Shown here: positions 2,559 to 40,848 of the stretch, piece by piece
Layout of the letters: every line of letters starts with the position of its first letter
How positions within the stretch are numbered: position 1 is the stretch's first letter
Origin: Patescibacteria group bacterium
GTDB lineage: Bacteria > Patescibacteriota > Microgenomatia > UBA1400 > PJMF01
Direction: 5' to 3'
Length of the DNA stretch: 64,000 bases
Assembly (NCBI GenBank): GCA_041747555.1
Contig: JBGTEY010000013.1
Coordinates: forward strand, 208,814 to 272,813
Translations under genes and position numbers: made by a program
The notes under the pieces: generated by a model
Databases searched by the model: none
What the model saw: only the letters and a program-made list of their open reading frames with translations
Told to the model about the DNA's origin: nothing

Positions 2559-2635
2559 TGGTGGGTCCGCCGGGACTCGAACCCGGGACGCACAGCTTAA
2601 AAGGCTGTCGCTCTAACCGACTGAGCTACGGACCC
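2559..2635 (-). tRNA. tRNA-Lys (anticodon TTT)
   Basis: Reverse complement GGGTCCGTAGCTCAGTCGGTTAGAGCGACAGCCTTTTAAGCTGTGCGTCCCGGGTTCGAGTCCCGGCGGACCCACCA folds as a cloverleaf. Acceptor GGGTCCG pairs with CGGACCC, anticodon loop is CTTTTAA, T-loop is GGTTCGAGTCC, and CCA is encoded. Confidence 0.8.
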
Positions 2636-11187: not shown

Positions 11188-11667
11188 ATGGCGAACCAAA
11201 AAACACCAACTATCGAATTAACTAAGGAAGGTTTCGACGAACTTCAGGCAGAACTTGCTGAACTTCGTGATGTCAAACTTCCTGCCGTTATTGCTCGAGT
11301 TGCCAAAGCGCGCGAACACGGCGATCTATCAGAAAACGCCGAGTATCACAGTGCTCAAGATGATCAACAACTCATCGAGACAAGAATTGCAGAAATTGAT
11401 TCTATTCTTTCTAAAGCAAAAGTAGTTCAACACACCAAAAGTAGCCTTAAAGTCGGCATCGGCTCCAAAGTTGAAGTCAAGAAAAAAGGCGCCAAAAAAG
11501 GCACCACGTTTAGTATCGTTGGAGAGTACGAATCAAACCCAGCTGAAGGCAAAATCTCAAGTGTTTCGCCACTCGGTAAGGCATTGATTGGTAAGAAGAA
11601 GGGCGACACAGTTCAGGTGGAGGCGCCAAGCGGAACAATTTCCTACGAGATTCTTCAAATCAAGTAA
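11188..11667 (+). CDS. greA: transcription elongation factor GreA
   Basis: 159 aa. LTKEGFDELQAELAELR coiled-coil with GDLSENAEYHSAQ acidic tip. C-terminal FKBP-like domain. A TTGCTC-16-TATACT promoter ends 8 nt before the ATG. Confidence 0.85.
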   Translation: MANQKTPTIELTKEGFDELQAELAELRDVKLPAVIARVAKAREHGDLSENAEYHSAQDDQQLIETRIAEIDSILSKAKVVQHTKSSLKVGIGSKVEVKKKGAKKGTTFSIVGEYESNPAEGKISSVSPLGKALIGKKKGDTVQVEAPSGTISYEILQIK

Positions 11668-11718: not shown

Positions 11719-13827
11719 GTGAGAGGTATTTCTATGTCAAGAATCGACGAAACAATTCAAGCAAAAAAAGAAAAAAGAGCGCAGCTCGAGCGCGCGGGCA
11801 TTGATGCCCATCCGCATTCGTTTGATAAACAAATTAAAATTGTGGATGTTAAAAACCACCACGACACCGTTGTTCAGACTGCTGGTAGAATTATCAGACT
11901 CAGAACACACGGTAAAGTTCAATTCTTCGACCTGGTAGACGATAGTGATCGTGTGCAAATTATGGTCCGTGAGGAAGAGGTTGGGTCAGAAACATGGGAA
12001 TGGCTATCATTTGTAGACCGAGGTGATTTCATTGGTGTATCAGGCACTGTCATGACCACCAAAACTGGCCAGCTAACAATTCTAGCATCCACAATTACAT
12101 TCTTGGGTAAAGCACTCCGCCCACTTCCCACAGAGTTCAACGCCGCAGAAGACAAAGAAGTTCGATTTCGCAAACGTTATGTAGATATGCTCATCAACGA
12201 AAACACCAAACGCGTTCTCGATGCCCGCTGGCTAATCACCAAAGAAATTCGAAGGTTTTTGCAGGATGAACATAATTTTACTGAAGTCGAAACGCCAATT
12301 CTGCAACCGCTCTATGGTGGTACCAACGCCACTCCCTTTACTACTCACATGGCAGCTCTTGATACAAACTATTACCTCAGAATCGCCCCAGAACTCTATC
12401 TCAAAAGATTAATTGTAGGTGGATACGACAAGGTTTTTGAAATTGCCAGAAATTTCAGAAATGAAGGCATTGACCAAACTCACCAACCAGAATTTACCAT
12501 GATCGAATGGTATGAAGCGTACGCAGACTATCATCGAATGATGGACGTCACTGAAGGTCTCTACAAACATTTGGCACAAAAATTGCACGGCCATACCAAA
12601 ATTAACATCGGTGACAAGACCGTCGATCTCGGTGGGTCATGGCCAAGAATTCCAATGGACGAAGCGCTTAACACATACGCCAAAATCAATGTTGCAAAAA
12701 TCTCAGACGATGAACTGCGAGCACTCCTCACCAAGCATGAAGTCAATCTCAAAAGTTCATTCACTCGAGGAAAAGCTATTTTTGAATTATTTGATGCACT
12801 CGTCACTCCACACCTCATCGAACCAACATGGATTATCAATTATCCGCGCGACATTAGCCCACTTGCCAAACACCACCGAGATGATGCAGCATTAGCAGAA
12901 CGATTCGAAGGCTACGTCGGTGGCAAAGAAATCGCCGACGGCTGGAGCGAGATTACCGATCCAATTGATCAACGACGGATTTTTGATGTTGAACAATCAA
13001 ATATGAGATCGGGTGATGACGAGGCACATCCTCTTGATGAAGATTTTCTCGAAGCTATGGAGTATGGCATGCCACCACTTGGTGGAATTGGGATTGGAAT
13101 TGATCGATTAGTGATGTTTTTAACAAATACCTGGAGTATTAAAGAAGTAATTGCGTTCCCAACACTCAAGCCATTACCAACTCAGCAAGGTGCTCCTGCA
13201 CCAGAAACTTCAAAAGCAGTTTCTGGTGGCAAATCAGCCAAAATAGAGGAGGGCGCAAAAGATGACAACCTCCACGCTGAGCTCGGCACAAAAGACGACA
13301 CACCACTACCTCCTAGAGAAGATGCAGAAAAGTTGCTCAATAAATATATTGAAAACGACAATCTTCGCCACCATTGTAAAATGGTTGCTCAAGCACTCGA
13401 AGCATACGCCAAGGAACTCGGCGCAGATGCAGAACTCTGGTACCAAACGGGATTACTACACGATCTTGACTGGGAACAGTACCCAGATGAGCACCCAAAT
13501 AAAGCCATTAAAGATATTTTAACTGAATATCCAGCCTCAATGCTCCAAGCAATCGCCGCACACGCCCCAGAGAGAACAGGGGTCAAACCAAGCGCCACCC
13601 TAGACCGATATCTCTACGCTTGTGACGAGTTGTCCGGCTTCTTGCACGCCTACTCGCTGATGAGACCCGAAGGATTTGCCGGCATGAAATTTAAATCAGT
13701 TAATAAAAAACTAAAGGATAAAGCTTTTGCTGCAAACGTAAATCGAGATGATATCAGAGAAGGTTTTGCGCTGATTGGCAAAGAGCCGAATGAGCATGTG
13801 GAGTTTTTGATTGGGGTGTTTGAGTAA
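11719..13827 (+). CDS. lysS: lysyl-tRNA synthetase (class II) fused to a C-terminal YqeK-like HD-domain phosphohydrolase
   Basis: Residues 1 to about 495 are canonical LysRS: OB anticodon-binding domain and class II motifs up to ..EVIAFPTLKPL. After a linker, residues about 540-702 (LRHHCKMVAQALEAYAKELGADAELWYQTGLLHDLD..AAHAPERTG..) carry the H..H / HD / HAP signature of HD hydrolases, closest by eye to YqeK (Ap4A hydrolase). Confidence 0.85.
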   Translation: MRGISMSRIDETIQAKKEKRAQLERAGIDAHPHSFDKQIKIVDVKNHHDTVVQTAGRIIRLRTHGKVQFFDLVDDSDRVQIMVREEEVGSETWEWLSFVDRGDFIGVSGTVMTTKTGQLTILASTITFLGKALRPLPTEFNAAEDKEVRFRKRYVDMLINENTKRVLDARWLITKEIRRFLQDEHNFTEVETPILQPLYGGTNATPFTTHMAALDTNYYLRIAPELYLKRLIVGGYDKVFEIARNFRNEGIDQTHQPEFTMIEWYEAYADYHRMMDVTEGLYKHLAQKLHGHTKINIGDKTVDLGGSWPRIPMDEALNTYAKINVAKISDDELRALLTKHEVNLKSSFTRGKAIFELFDALVTPHLIEPTWIINYPRDISPLAKHHRDDAALAERFEGYVGGKEIADGWSEITDPIDQRRIFDVEQSNMRSGDDEAHPLDEDFLEAMEYGMPPLGGIGIGIDRLVMFLTNTWSIKEVIAFPTLKPLPTQQGAPAPETSKAVSGGKSAKIEEGAKDDNLHAELGTKDDTPLPPREDAEKLLNKYIENDNLRHHCKMVAQALEAYAKELGADAELWYQTGLLHDLDWEQYPDEHPNKAIKDILTEYPASMLQAIAAHAPERTGVKPSATLDRYLYACDELSGFLHAYSLMRPEGFAGMKFKSVNKKLKDKAFAANVNRDDIREGFALIGKEPNEHVEFLIGVFE

Positions 13828-13877: not shown

Positions 13878-14213
13878 ATGCAAGAAACGATCGTTGAGAC
13901 AAGCGAACAGGAGGCAAGTGCAGGTAAATTAGCAGTTGCACAAGAATCTGAAGAGTCTGTACGCAGTAAGGATGAAAAATTGACGTATGCAAATAATGCA
14001 ATTACTACAATTACGCAACGAATCACCCATATTTCGACAGTACATAATGTAGATAATTATCCCGATATTGATGATGAAATTTCAACCTGGGAACTGCAGC
14101 TCGCTGAATTCATAGCTGCGCATCCTACAGAAAGTTTGACTGCGAACAATTTCGCCACCAAACTATCAGAGCTTAAAGTTGCAGTTTCACAAAATCGCCC
14201 TCAGTCATCATAG
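13878..14213 (+). CDS. hypothetical protein
   Basis: 111 aa ORF with no recognisable motifs. Its sequence looks plausible for a coding region. Confidence 0.3.
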   Translation: MQETIVETSEQEASAGKLAVAQESEESVRSKDEKLTYANNAITTITQRITHISTVHNVDNYPDIDDEISTWELQLAEFIAAHPTESLTANNFATKLSELKVAVSQNRPQSS

Positions 14214-14224
14214 ATCTCTTCGGC

Positions 14225-14535
14225 ATGCTATACTATCTACAAGCTAACAACAGCACTCGAGATAGCTAGCACCTATCAAAGATCGCGCCTCTGCAACTCG
14301 CAGAAAAGTATCTGTGCTACTTGGAGTCAAAAACCAAGTCGGGTAAGCCCGTAATCGCTGGAACGAAGCCCTGATCTTTCAGGAAAAGAGGTGGTACCGC
14401 TCACATTTGTAGAGCCCTCTTGAGTACGTCAATCTTTTGGCGAATTCAAGAGGGTTTTTCACGTGGAACTTTTTTGAGTACATTTTGACGTCTAGTATTT
14501 TTATAAACATTTCACGTGGAAACAAAAAGGAACAT
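14225..14535 (+). promoter_or_regulatory. T-box-like riboswitch leader of serS (promoter, stem I region, T-box sequence, terminator/antiterminator)
   Basis: AAAAGAGGTGGTACCGCTCAC (about 14380-14403) matches the T-box consensus AAnnnGGGTGGnACCGCG with a perfect GGTGGTACCGC core. An intrinsic terminator follows immediately. The about 300-nt untranslated leader lies directly upstream of an aminoacyl-tRNA synthetase gene. TATACT at about 14229 is a possible -10. Confidence 0.5.
14415..14459 (+). terminator. intrinsic terminator hairpin of the T-box leader (CCCTCTTGA..TCAAGAGGG + TTTTT)
   Basis: A 9-bp perfect stem at 14415-14423 / 14446-14454 is followed by a TTTTT tract. It lies 3' of the T-box sequence, as in T-box attenuators. 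Confidence 0.5.
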
Positions 14536-15813
14536 ATGTTAGATATACAATTTATTCGTGAAAATGCAGAAGACGTACGAACCGCATGTAAAAACAAGCA
14601 ACTTGACCCAAAGGTTGTAGACGACCTTTTAGCGGTTGATAAGAAACGTCGAGAAGTTCAGGTCATGGTCGACGCCATCAGACAACGAAGCAATGAGCAC
14701 AACGTGACGGTAAAAAAGTCAGTCAGTGACGGTAAAAAGCCAACTGCTGAACAAATTGAATCCGGTAAAAATCTCAAAGAAGAACTCCGAGCTATTGAAC
14801 CAGAATTAAAAATTCTAGAAGAAGAGTATCAAAAACTGCTACTTGAGGTTCCAAACGTTCCCGCTGACAGCGTGCCAATTGGTGCCGATGAGTCTGGCAA
14901 CAAGATCATTAAAACAAATGGTACTCCTCAAACATTCGACTTCGAGCCACTCCCTCATGACACACTTATGGAAAAACTAGATCTGCTCGATGCTGCACGA
15001 GCTGTGAGAATTGGCGGGTTCCGTTCGTATTTCCTCAAACATGAGGCCGTCCTCCTGGAACAAGCAATTCTTCAGTATGCCATGCAAAAAATGGTCAAAA
15101 ATGGCTTCACCCCTATGACAGCGCCGATTTTAATTAATGATGAAGCAATGTGGGGAACTGGCTACTTCCCATGGGGAAAAGAGGATCATTACCGAACACA
15201 AGACAATCAAAGCTTGGCGGGCACTTCAGAAGTCGCCCTAACTGCTTACCACATGGGTGAAACGCTCACAGAAGCCGATCTACCAATCAAAATGGCAGGT
15301 ATTTCACCGTGTTTTAGAAGAGAAGTTGGGTCGTACGGCAAAGATACCAAAGGCGTCATTAGGGTGCATCAATTTATGAAAGTTGAGCAAGTCGTCTACA
15401 CCGTTGCCGATGAGGCAGAAACCCAAGCCTGGCATGAAAAAATGCTTGGTCTTGCAGAAGAACTGTTGCAAGATCTTGAGCTACCATACCAAGTCCTCCT
15501 GATGTGCACAGGAGACATGGGTGCGGGTCAACGAAAGAAATACGACGTGGAAACATGGTTTCCGTCTCAGAACGCGTATCGTGAAACACACTCGGCAAGT
15601 TATTTTAATGACTTCCAGTCGAGAAGACTCGGCATTAAGTACAAAGCTAAGGATGGCACGCTCAAACATGTTTTCACGCTTAATAACACCATGGCAGCTA
15701 CACCACGCCTGCTAGCCGCAGTTATAGAAAATTATCAAACCAAAGAGGGTGGTATTGCTGTACCCAAGGTTTTGCAGCCGCTCATGGGCATGCAGCATAT
15801 ATCGAGAGAATAG
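14536..15813 (+). CDS. serS: seryl-tRNA synthetase
   Basis: N-terminus MLDIQFIRENAEDV, then a coiled-coil arm, then class II core (FRREVGSYGKDTKGVIRVHQF, GAGQRKKYDVETWFPS). An AAGGA ribosome-binding site sits 6 nt before ATG 14536. The ORF-track TTG start at 14437 would run through the terminator and is rejected. Confidence 0.9.
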   Translation: MLDIQFIRENAEDVRTACKNKQLDPKVVDDLLAVDKKRREVQVMVDAIRQRSNEHNVTVKKSVSDGKKPTAEQIESGKNLKEELRAIEPELKILEEEYQKLLLEVPNVPADSVPIGADESGNKIIKTNGTPQTFDFEPLPHDTLMEKLDLLDAARAVRIGGFRSYFLKHEAVLLEQAILQYAMQKMVKNGFTPMTAPILINDEAMWGTGYFPWGKEDHYRTQDNQSLAGTSEVALTAYHMGETLTEADLPIKMAGISPCFRREVGSYGKDTKGVIRVHQFMKVEQVVYTVADEAETQAWHEKMLGLAEELLQDLELPYQVLLMCTGDMGAGQRKKYDVETWFPSQNAYRETHSASYFNDFQSRRLGIKYKAKDGTLKHVFTLNNTMAATPRLLAAVIENYQTKEGGIAVPKVLQPLMGMQHISRE

Positions 15814-22527: not shown

Positions 22528-22995
22528 ATGCAAAAATCAGACTGTATATTTTGTCAAATTGTGGTCGGTGATGCACCATCACACACCATTTGGGAGAGCG
22601 AAACTCATCAGGCATTTCTATCTATTTTCCCAAATACCGAAGGTTTCACCGTAGTTATTCCCAAAGCACATCATGGGAGTTATGCATTCGAGCAGGATGA
22701 CCAAGTCTTGTCAGAATTGGTAATCGCCACCAAAAAAGTTGCCCTTCTCCTCGATAAATACTATGATGATGTCGAGCGGTGCGGGATGTTTTTCGAGGGT
22801 TATGGTGTGGACCACCTCCATTCTAAGCTTTTCCCGATGCACGGCACCGCAGATCAAGGCAATGCTCCAAAAGAAAGTGCCACATTCGATACTTATTTTG
22901 AAAACTATCCGGGGTATTTGAGCTCAAACAACTCATTGAGAGCAGATGATAAACAACTAGCAGCGCTCGCCGCTGAAATTAGAAACGCTGCCTAA
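22528..22995 (+). CDS. HIT (histidine triad) family nucleotide hydrolase/transferase
   Basis: DCIFCQIV N-terminal motif and the histidine triad HLHSKLFPMH. 155 aa. Confidence 0.8.
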   Translation: MQKSDCIFCQIVVGDAPSHTIWESETHQAFLSIFPNTEGFTVVIPKAHHGSYAFEQDDQVLSELVIATKKVALLLDKYYDDVERCGMFFEGYGVDHLHSKLFPMHGTADQGNAPKESATFDTYFENYPGYLSSNNSLRADDKQLAALAAEIRNAA

Positions 22996-39798: not shown

Positions 39799-40848
39799 CT
39801 ACTCAAAAAGTTCTGACACAGGAAAGGTCAGTGTCTCATTCACACCAGCAACATCTGCAAAAAGCATTACTAATCGATCAACACCCACGGCAATTCCACC
39901 CGTTGGGTGAAGTCCTGATTTGAGGGCTGCTATAAAGTTTTTATCAAGTGAATACGGTGTTTTTCCAAGCTCTTGTCGCAGCTGCAAGTCAGCAACCATG
40001 CGTGACTTTTGCTCTTCCCAATCAAGTAGTTCACTAAATGCATTTCCTAACTCAAGCCCACCAATATAAAACTCGAACCGCTCTGCATATCTTGGGTCTG
40101 ATGATTTTTTCTTGGCAAGTGCTGCCTGGGAGATTGGATAGTCAAATAGTATAGTTGGCCCATGGACGCCAAGGTGCGGCTCAATCTCATTGAGAAATAT
40201 TTGGTTATACATAGTCTCCCACGTGTCGGAGTCTGAAATTGAATAACCTTTTTTTCGTGCCGCTGCAAGTATTTTTTCTTCTTCGTGCAAAGCATCCTCG
40301 TTTATTCCAGCATATCGAGAAAATGCCTCGGCTACAGAAATTCTATCCCATGGTGGAGCGAGATCGTAGGCTAAACCTTGATACAGTAATTTTTGTCCAC
40401 TTGATGGATGCACCTGATCCAGAATGGAGAGCAACAATTGTTCACAGTCGTGCATGACGTGTGTGTAATCTGCGTTCGTCCGATACCACTCTAAGATGGT
40501 AAATTCAGGGTTATGCATATCGCTTAAGCCTTCGTCATTTCGAAAGCTTTTTGTAATTTGAAAAATATTTCCAAACCCAGCCGCCAGGAGTTGCTTCATC
40601 TGTAGTTCTGGACTGGTGGTGAGAAAGGCAGATGATTGTATTGAATCGCCACACCTCAATCGTGTCTCAAAAACCTCCAAGTATGGTTCTGTTCCAGGAC
40701 TTTTCACCAAAAGAGGAGTCTCAACTTCTCGAAATGACTGCGATTTAAAAAACGTCCGAATACTATCAATAACTTTCTCTCTAGTATCAAAAATATGCAG
40801 TAACTCTGGATGTTCGCGAATTTTTTGCCAGGTAGGAGTTTTTTGCAT
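39799..40848 (-). CDS. epmA: EF-P--(R)-beta-lysine ligase EpmA (PoxA/GenX; LysRS paralog lacking anticodon-binding domain)
   Basis: FREVETPLLVKSPGTEPYLEVFETRLR..SPELQMKQLLAAGFGNIFQITKSFRNDEG..HNPEFTILEWY matches class II LysRS-like motifs as found in EpmA. Adjacent to and co-directional with efp. Start moved to MQKTPTWQ to avoid overlap with the upstream gene. Confidence 0.75.
   Translation of the reverse strand: MQKTPTWQKIREHPELLHIFDTREKVIDSIRTFFKSQSFREVETPLLVKSPGTEPYLEVFETRLRCGDSIQSSAFLTTSPELQMKQLLAAGFGNIFQITKSFRNDEGLSDMHNPEFTILEWYRTNADYTHVMHDCEQLLLSILDQVHPSSGQKLLYQGLAYDLAPPWDRISVAEAFSRYAGINEDALHEEEKILAAARKKGYSISDSDTWETMYNQIFLNEIEPHLGVHGPTILFDYPISQAALAKKKSSDPRYAERFEFYIGGLELGNAFSELLDWEEQKSRMVADLQLRQELGKTPYSLDKNFIAALKSGLHPTGGIAVGVDRLVMLFADVAGVNETLTFPVSELFE

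Follow-up and report, generated by a model that had tools for sequence, protein, structure and literature searches.

Introduction

Lysyl-tRNA synthetase (LysRS) is the classical cellular source of diadenosine tetraphosphate (Ap4A), and it is still debated whether this nucleotide is a by-product or indeed functions as an alarmone. To our knowledge, the only well-studied HD domain within an aminoacyl-tRNA synthetase is that of the beta-subunit (GlyRS-beta) found in bacterial glycyl-tRNA synthetase of the (alpha-beta)2 type. This domain contacts the acceptor stem and the discriminator base of the tRNA (PMC9908026). Another HD protein is YqeK (COG1713), the symmetric Ap4A/Ap4N hydrolase of Gram-positive bacteria, which splits Ap4A into 2 ADP. 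YqeK has a binuclear metal site with six ligands (H21, H50, D127 / D51, H83, H109) (PMC13627108). In LysX (LysRS-MprF, NF002821), a second enzyme that uses or handles a product of LysRS is attached covalently to a complete class II LysRS, and the protein described here would be built in the same way. In this study, we analyzed the lysS gene in a stretch of 64,000 nucleotides from a Patescibacteria group bacterium (contig JBGTEY010000013.1; the whole stretch is called the window below), whose product carries an HD module behind a class II LysRS.

The Patescibacteria, also known as the Candidate Phyla Radiation (CPR), have minimal genomes and almost no biochemistry. A full-text literature search, which covers subscription papers thinly and thus gives absence of evidence only, found no paper on a LysRS-HD fusion, on an HDIG domain with a tRNA synthetase or on class I LysRS with Ap4A, and also no published characterization of the HD family to which the tail belongs. 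In public records, the fusions are named 'lysine--tRNA ligase' and the stand-alone form 'HDIG domain-containing protein'. An original prediction, made from the letters of the window, had described the gene as a LysRS fused to a YqeK-like HD hydrolase. Here, the fusion was compared with its relatives, with the genomic context of the HD family and with HD domains of known structure.

Domain structure of the fusion protein

The fusion gene is a single unbroken open reading frame (ORF) at 11719..13827 on the plus strand, with 702 codons counted from the GTG at 11719 given in the ORF list and with its stop codon at 13825-13827. The ATG at 11734 is the probable start, likelier than the GTG, and gives a product of 697 aa. 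A GAGAGG sits 8 nt 5′ of this ATG, and a public protein of 697 aa (P0121) is 100% identical to the product that begins there. In the predicted product, a complete class II LysRS is followed by a low-complexity linker of 43 aa and an HD domain of 173 aa. The OB-fold anticodon-binding domain comprises residues 52-127 (11872..12099, plus strand; PF01336, 48.6 bits), and the class II (D/K/N) catalytic core comprises residues 145-483 (12151..13167, plus strand; PF00152, 303 bits). The flexible linker, rich in P, A, S, E, K and T, spans residues 487-529 (13177..13305, plus strand), and the HD/HDIG-type module, recognized by PF01966, TIGR00277 and an AlphaFold2 model, spans residues 530-702 (13306..13824, plus strand).

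Membership in class II LysRS is given by equivalog and subfamily cut-offs that are passed over the full model length: NF001756 (lysS, PRK00484) scored 604.1 bits (cut-off 468), with residues 11-485 aligned to positions 2-487 of the 488 of the model, and TIGR00499 (lysS) scored 525.9 bits (cut-off 427.6). Because the lysS models cover residues 11-485, the LysRS core ends near residue 485; the core is thus complete, as had been predicted, while its proposed end at residue 495 has to be corrected. In an alignment of 119 fusion homologues, the blocks with FRNEG and GIGIGIDRL (motifs 2 and 3) show a conservation of 0.93-0.99. The LysRS part also aligns to the LysRS half of LysX (NF002821) with 524 bits, without reaching the cut-off of 742; the MprF domain of LysX is missing here, and the predicted addition is an HD phosphohydrolase at the C-terminus. 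No second LysRS of class I or class II was detected within the 64-kb window. By these matches, the LysRS half is an ordinary bacterial class II LysRS and presumably the housekeeping enzyme.

The tail passes the Pfam model HD (PF01966, residues 551-639; cut-off 22) with 26.8 bits in the whole protein and 29.2 bits when searched alone, and the HDIG model TIGR00277 (cut-off 27.6) with 34.2 and 36.8 bits, respectively. No break in GC content was found across the LysRS/HD junction. Both the fusion and the order of linker and HD module, as read in the original prediction, were therefore confirmed by one continuous ORF and by the lysS, HD and HDIG cut-offs.

Conservation of the fusion in relatives

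A search with the whole protein found at least 120 clusters, formed at the 90% identity level, whose members have 673-734 aa and are 62-84% identical to it over about the full length. These full-length fusion clusters, 111 of 120 with a precomputed HD annotation, derive from assemblies of NCBI, JGI, ENA and Logan and carry the names Microgenomates, Woesebacteria or Patescibacteria. In the 119 aligned homologues, the junction (residues 485-540) ranges from 29 to 92 aa (median 44) and has a column conservation of 0.12-0.47, while the flanking domains overall reach 0.7-0.99 and conservation in the HD module, 0.70-0.83, is close to that of the synthetase core. A variable linker between two conserved domains marks a protein that has been selected as a pair of domains on a flexible tether. 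The LysRS-HD arrangement is ancient and selected in Patescibacteria.

The relatives include stand-alone versions of the same HD protein (175-185 aa), which speaks for lysS and a downstream HD gene having been joined here by a sequencing or assembly error or by recent loss of a stop codon. We regard the probability of such an artefact as practically negligible. In the relatives, the stand-alone HD follows class I LysRS and never class II, each of the 10 class II loci in species representatives carries the fusion, and at least 120 independent clusters keep a continuous frame across the variable linker, with no compositional break at the junction. The fusion is kept in many sister genomes and has not arisen by stop-codon loss or misassembly.

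Two further points concern the tail and the linker. A word-indexed search with the 202-aa tail gave short proteins only and missed P0121, although it is 100% identical, and all other fusions; since P0121 was omitted, the resulting list under-represents long multidomain proteins and was not used for relatedness. Within the linker, the semi-conserved motif IEEGAKDDNL..EL (13243-13284, residues 509-522) is shared with P0124-P0127 and P0129, which are 70-77% identical, and may be a short linear interaction motif.

Residues and predicted structure of the HD module

The HD module was examined in alignments of 25 sequences and of 118 sequences, the latter spanning all genomic contexts. Nine residues, H552, H581, D582, D584, H592, H615, D636, E637 and R676, are invariant in 118 of 118 sequences, and V556, L580, A644, F670 and A671 are also invariant in this alignment. 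The H...HD...D metal-binding motif of the HD superfamily is present as H552, H581-D582 and D636, and the His/His-Asp/His motifs that had been quoted in the original prediction are found, with H552, H581-D582 and H615 unchanged throughout. On the plus strand, the first metal-ligand His, H552 (the second H of 'RHH'), is encoded at 13372..13374; the HD doublet H581-D582 together with D584 (motif LLHDLDWE) at 13459..13470; the extra His, H592 (motif EHPN), a candidate for the sixth metal ligand, at 13492..13494; the metal-ligand His H615 (motif AAHAP) at 13561..13563; and the distal Asp of the HD motif with the adjacent Glu, D636-E637 (motif ACDELSG), at 13624..13629. A basic stretch, SVNKKLKDKAFAANVNR (13696..13746, plus strand), was recognized by its conservation: K663, K664 and K666 are 97-99% conserved and R676 100%. 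It is a candidate surface for binding polyphosphate or nucleic acid.

The AlphaFold2 model of the tail is all-helical with ten helices (pLDDT 96.7, pTM 0.92). Among 1.84 billion representatives, the relatives of the HD family number 2620 at E≤1e-3, of which 849 reach E≤1e-10. By its model matches, the tail is classed as a member of the HD superfamily at the level of the HDIG domain, from a distinct, uncharacterized family. Judged from the four invariant His and three invariant Asp, the HD module is probably an active metal-dependent phosphohydrolase, probably with two metals.

Exchange of LysRS classes at the locus

For the genomic context, GTDB species representatives were scanned, which gave more than 592 loci with relatives; the best 80 were retained and classified by tblastn, ORF inspection and hidden Markov model (HMM) scans. 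At 10 of the 33 CPR loci, the HD is fused to class II LysRS. In a second form, the HD gene lies directly 3′ of a class I LysRS gene (TIGR00467, 308 bits), and at two loci of a third form class I LysRS and HD are separated by a Nif3 gene, alone or together with a MazG-like gene. In 17 of 23 loci, the HD start lies -4 to +13 nt from the class I stop codon; the class-I-adjacent HD gene is a separate gene and presumably translationally coupled. The two loci with a Nif3/DUF34 insertion are L022 (3192-3971) and L049 (2817-3599 and 3619-3939), the latter also with the small MazG-like ORF, which stays just under the Pfam cut-off.

The gene order atpD-atpC-greA-[lysS class I or II]-HD-serS is kept in all CPR loci, and the flanking proteins are similarly divergent for either LysRS class. 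In the window, the conserved upstream flank greA was assigned by synteny to 11188..11667 (plus strand), and the downstream flank serS, from the ORF list and synteny, to 14437..15813 (plus strand; probable start ATG 14530). In a neighbor-joining tree of the HD sequences (no bootstrap), fused and class-I-adjacent forms are thoroughly interleaved, and the HD of the window clusters with two class-I-adjacent HDs. Two pairs of loci show the class switch directly. At the locus L006 (715-3686), a class I LysRS-B3_4 gene precedes an HD that forms an ORF of its own, whereas L087 (5001-7100) has a class II LysRS fused to HD between the same flanks; the greA regions of the two are 72% identical in nucleotides and the HD regions 81.5% in nucleotides and 92% in amino acids. 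L016 and L033 form the second pair, with an HD identity of 86%. As HD and flanks are conserved while the LysRS body differs, the body has been exchanged in situ between the unrelated classes with the HD staying in place. The interleaved tree suggests that such cassette-like replacement of LysRS has occurred repeatedly in CPR.

When class I LysRS and HD were artificially concatenated as a query, 120 class I clusters were recovered, and no covalent fusion with HD was found among them. In genomes outside CPR, the HD gene stands alone among unrelated neighbors, in Balneolaceae including the cultured Gracilimonas tropica DSM 19535 (L060, 3986-4531), in high-GC bacteria and in others; no recurring partner of distant stand-alone members was found among the neighbors examined. 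As a lone gene, the HD protein therefore works autonomously there. Several contigs with CPR gene order and proteins (L004, L005, L009, L015, L017 and others) are titled 'uncultured Pseudomonadales bacterium' or 'Vitreimonas sp.'; these are probably mislabelled taxonomies of metagenome-assembled genomes.

Other architectures of the HD family

Fusion partners were surveyed among the best 150 representatives at 50% identity, of which 16 long proteins were scanned (truncated ones included, P0370 left out). In all 16, class II LysRS is the partner of the HD, which may stand on either side of it, and a MazG-HD protein (P0309, 310 aa) was the sole non-LysRS partner seen in this survey. LysRS is the only recurrent large fusion partner of this HD family. 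The order LysRS-HD has many examples, some of them in unrelated genomic contexts such as L085, while in P0295 (715 aa) the HD is N-terminal. Additional domains occur between the two parts: NUDIX in P0341 (935 aa), DUF2000 in P0247 and in the full-length P0396 (833 aa, on 8 contigs), and B3_4, which matches the editing region of the phenylalanyl-tRNA synthetase beta-subunit (PheRS-beta), in P0201 and P0215. In L005, the LysRS core is a true class II core only 38% identical to that of the window, yet the fused HD is 71% identical. As P0295, L005 and L085 show, HD and class II LysRS have been fused repeatedly and independently.

A C-terminal B3_4 domain is also present in about a third of the class I LysRS clusters (39 of 120); such genes lie at 1599-3992 in L011, 1625-3988 in L020 and 715-3099 in L006, and also occur in L017 and L067. 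LysRS of either class may thus have acquired B3_4 as an editing domain. A PTH2-like fold of DUF2000 was unsupported by PDB sequence search or literature. The N-terminal regions of P0300 and P0364 are Arg-rich over-called starts in high-GC DNA instead of new domains.

Function of the HD tail and comparison with known HD proteins

The HD tail most likely hydrolyzes Ap4A-type dinucleoside polyphosphates made by LysRS, a reading that we favor tentatively. When lysyl-adenylate reacts with a nucleotide and not with tRNA, LysRS would yield Ap4A or other dinucleoside tetraphosphates (Ap4N), perhaps diadenosine triphosphate (Ap3A), or related adenylylated by-products. The HD module would degrade these dinucleoside polyphosphates or adenylylated by-products, and the tether would hold one hydrolase per synthetase subunit, with production and clearance of the alarmone co-expressed. 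Where a class I body has replaced class II, the same HD enzyme would persist as a separate coupled gene. We favor an Ap4A-type substrate because the nearest solved structures by rank, though weak matches, are Ap4A hydrolases, because the partners NUDIX and MazG are nucleotide pyrophosphohydrolases, because the HD enzyme functions autonomously elsewhere, and because LysRS is the main source of Ap4A (PMC13627108).

The AlphaFold2 model of the tail was compared with the PDB by Foldseek. No match reached E≤1e-3; the best had an E-value of 0.01, with template modelling (TM) scores of about 0.45-0.52 and probabilities up to 1.00, and nearly all of the best 50 matches are recognizable HD-domain proteins. 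The top ranks are taken by YqeK structures, namely SP1746 of S. pneumoniae (8jkp), 8wmy, 2ogi, 2o08 and 3ccg, interleaved with the HD of E. coli GlyRS-beta, PgpH, small alarmone hydrolases, YpgQ and a dNTPase. The best specific NCBIfam matches are DVU_1551 and PRK07152 (NadD-YqeK), which are HD domains fused to nucleotidyl or adenylyl transferases. The genomic partner of YqeK is NadD, consistent with the match of the tail to the NadD-HD model PRK07152, and tail and YqeK are alike in being genomically tied to an adenylate-forming or adenylyl-transfer enzyme. Both are also small all-helical HD domains of about 175-195 aa with four ligands at nearly equal spacing (H-29-HD-33-H here, H21-H50/D51-H83 in YqeK): the 29 residues from H552 to the HD doublet are the same as between H21 and H50, and 33 residues separate D582 from H615 compared with 32 between D51 and H83. 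The two differ in that no His lies between H615 and D636, and thus by sequence order no equivalent of H109 exists; the invariant H592, ten residues past the HD doublet, might stand in for it in three dimensions. The motifs HDLDWE, EHPN, CDELSG, LMRPxGF and KKKLKDKxFAAxVxR are specific to the present family.

Several results weigh against hydrolysis of LysRS-made Ap4A. The YqeK equivalog model TIGR00488 matched tail residues 50-99 only, with 12.8 bits and an E-value of 0.08 at a cut-off of 70.15, which was not passed. The YqeK structures, at E-values of about 0.01, TM scores of 0.44-0.51 and 15-20% identity, match no better than the HD of GlyRS-beta, a tRNA binder, or PgpH. R18, K54, E80 and R133, the phosphate and adenine contacts of YqeK, are replaced by L549, W585, A/I612 and L/F642 when placed by sequence offset only; W585 occupies the place of the phosphate-binding Lys of HDIG and YqeK. 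Because these substrate contacts are not conserved, the pocket of the tail probably differs from that of YqeK. In sequence searches, neither the tail alone nor the family profile gave a significant match among PDB sequences, and the profile recovered no YqeK chain in the PDB at E≤10. The tail is thus predicted to share the HD metal core with YqeK, with a different pocket, and is not a member of the YqeK family. Of the YqeK resemblance seen by eye in the original prediction, the top structural rank and the shared four-ligand spacing hold, while family membership does not. The class I loci are a further difficulty. The self-regulating logic of a joined producer and destroyer is weakened by the equally tight link of the same HD to class I LysRS. 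Ap4A is made in the absence of tRNA (PMC13627108), and class I LysRS needs tRNA for adenylate formation (PMC11961388), which therefore makes it a poor Ap4A source. Finally, the B3_4 and DUF2000 domains between LysRS and HD hint at tRNA-directed chemistry.

These points bear on a second explanation, in which the module is coupled to the function of LysRS and not to Ap4A, acting on or binding tRNA(Lys). It could repair a 3′-end or 2′,3′-cyclic phosphate, remove a cap-like or adenylylated group, or serve as a GlyRS-beta-like acceptor-stem clamp. It would agree with the HD remaining beside LysRS of either non-homologous class, with the order LysRS-B3_4-HD occurring with both classes and with B3_4 matching the PheRS-beta editing region, and with the near-invariant basic stretch (K663/K664/K666/R676, 97-100%). 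The HD of GlyRS-beta has the highest TM score to the tail model (0.50-0.52; E-value 0.014, 16% identity) and is a precedent for acceptor-stem binding (PMC9908026), and YqeK is reported also to hydrolyze Ap4A-capped RNA (PMC13627108). In GlyRS-beta, however, the HD serves tRNA recognition as an integral domain that lies between B3 and the anticodon-binding domain, whereas the present HD sits on a tether at the terminus, occurs as a free-standing protein too and keeps all catalytic residues. An invariant full catalytic set would be needless for a pure binding domain, and neither LysRS nor tRNA-related genes lie next to the stand-alone members of Balneolaceae and other phyla. The MazG and NUDIX partners point to small nucleotides, the structure of a CCA-enzyme-type HD (3wfr) matches poorly (TM score 0.26), and cassette replacement between conserved flanks can explain the class I linkage without functional coupling; a covalent class I-HD fusion was not found among the 120 class I clusters. 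We consider a tRNA(Lys)-directed module, the main rival of Ap4A hydrolysis, unlikely.

A related proposal takes the HD as an obligate partner of lysyl-tRNA synthesis for either LysRS fold: a synthetase-associated phosphoesterase acting on tRNA(Lys) or on a product derived from lysyl-adenylate, which together with the optional B3_4 would form a hitherto unrecognized LysRS quality-control or repair cassette in CPR. To this proposal we give a rather low probability. If it were true, class I and class II LysRS bodies would have been swapped like alleles ahead of the cassette.

The family may also be a generic phosphohydrolase for nucleotide house-cleaning or salvage without a special tie to LysRS chemistry, for example a 5′-nucleotidase for NMP/dNMP, an NTP/dNTP hydrolase or a cyclic-dinucleotide phosphodiesterase, and the fusion would just ensure that, in an organism with a small genome, the hydrolase is expressed constitutively along with an essential gene. 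The only models passed are the generic HD and HDIG models, MazG-HD and NUDIX-HD combinations are typical of nucleotide sanitizing, and outside CPR the HD occurs as lone genes in diverse contexts. Weak structure or sequence matches to PgpH (a cyclic di-AMP phosphodiesterase), YpgQ and dNTPases point the same way. PgpH has Foldseek TM scores of 0.49-0.50 and is the only HD chain that the family profile recovers in the PDB (4s1b; E-value 0.63, non-significant). The generic model TIGR00277 passed by the tail is a likeness to the HDIG domains of the PgpH/RNase Y type, but there is no seven-transmembrane or KH partner here, the HDIG Lys is replaced (HDLDW), and the matches are confined to the N-terminal H...HD region. 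Moreover, a generic hydrolase leaves unexplained that LysRS is almost the sole fusion partner, in both orientations, and repeated independent fusion to one enzyme is hard to attribute to co-expression alone; on balance, we hold this explanation to be improbable as well.

The original prediction had named a (p)ppGpp-hydrolase-like domain as an alternative to YqeK, and small alarmone hydrolases (SAH) and Mesh1 are indeed among the Foldseek matches (TM scores 0.38-0.50). Their identity to the tail is 13-15%, they rank under YqeK, GlyRS-beta and PgpH, and no HD model of the SpoT/RelA type was matched in Pfam or NCBIfam at E≤1. A (p)ppGpp hydrolase of the Mesh1/SpoT/SAH type, which thus has no HMM support in these databases, is very improbable.

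Other features of the window

The HIT gene at 22528-22995 (plus strand), 9 kb from lysS, had been named in the original prediction as another Ap4A-metabolizing family. It is a real ORF with a weak PF01230 match (27.4 bits, cut-off 21.5; HinT model 29.8 bits, cut-off 130), in its triad, H-L-H-S-K, a Lys stands in place of the third His, and no evidence tying it to lysS was found. A second class IIb synthetase-like region at 39820-40794 (minus strand), probably an asparaginyl- or aspartyl-tRNA synthetase (AsnRS, AspRS) or an EpmA-like paralogue, shows 32% identity with the LysRS core over 326 aa. A tRNA-Lys(UUU) gene is located at 2559-2635 (minus strand), 9 kb upstream of lysS, and six further tRNA genes are present in the window. 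Between lysS-HD and serS, a 111-aa ORF at 13878-14213 (plus strand) has no family match, and the equivalent space in L087 (7121-8699) contains two unannotated ORFs of 358 and 134 aa. As the content of the spacer differs between the window and L087, this intergenic slot is variable.

Conclusions

A natural fusion of LysRS with a phosphohydrolase would be a testable handle on the question whether Ap4A is an alarmone. The cultured Gracilimonas tropica DSM 19535 has a stand-alone member of the HD family, so experiments are feasible. Should the tail break down Ap4N, HD-type Ap4A hydrolases would gain a further family after YqeK, and there would be evidence that cells clear LysRS-made Ap4A where it arises; should tRNA(Lys) be its target, a new type of accessory activity of synthetases would be at hand. 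In both cases, the repeated exchange of the LysRS class in situ makes the locus a clean example, from nature, of non-orthologous gene displacement, and a PheRS-type, editing-like B3_4 domain appears to have been recurrently acquired by both LysRS classes.

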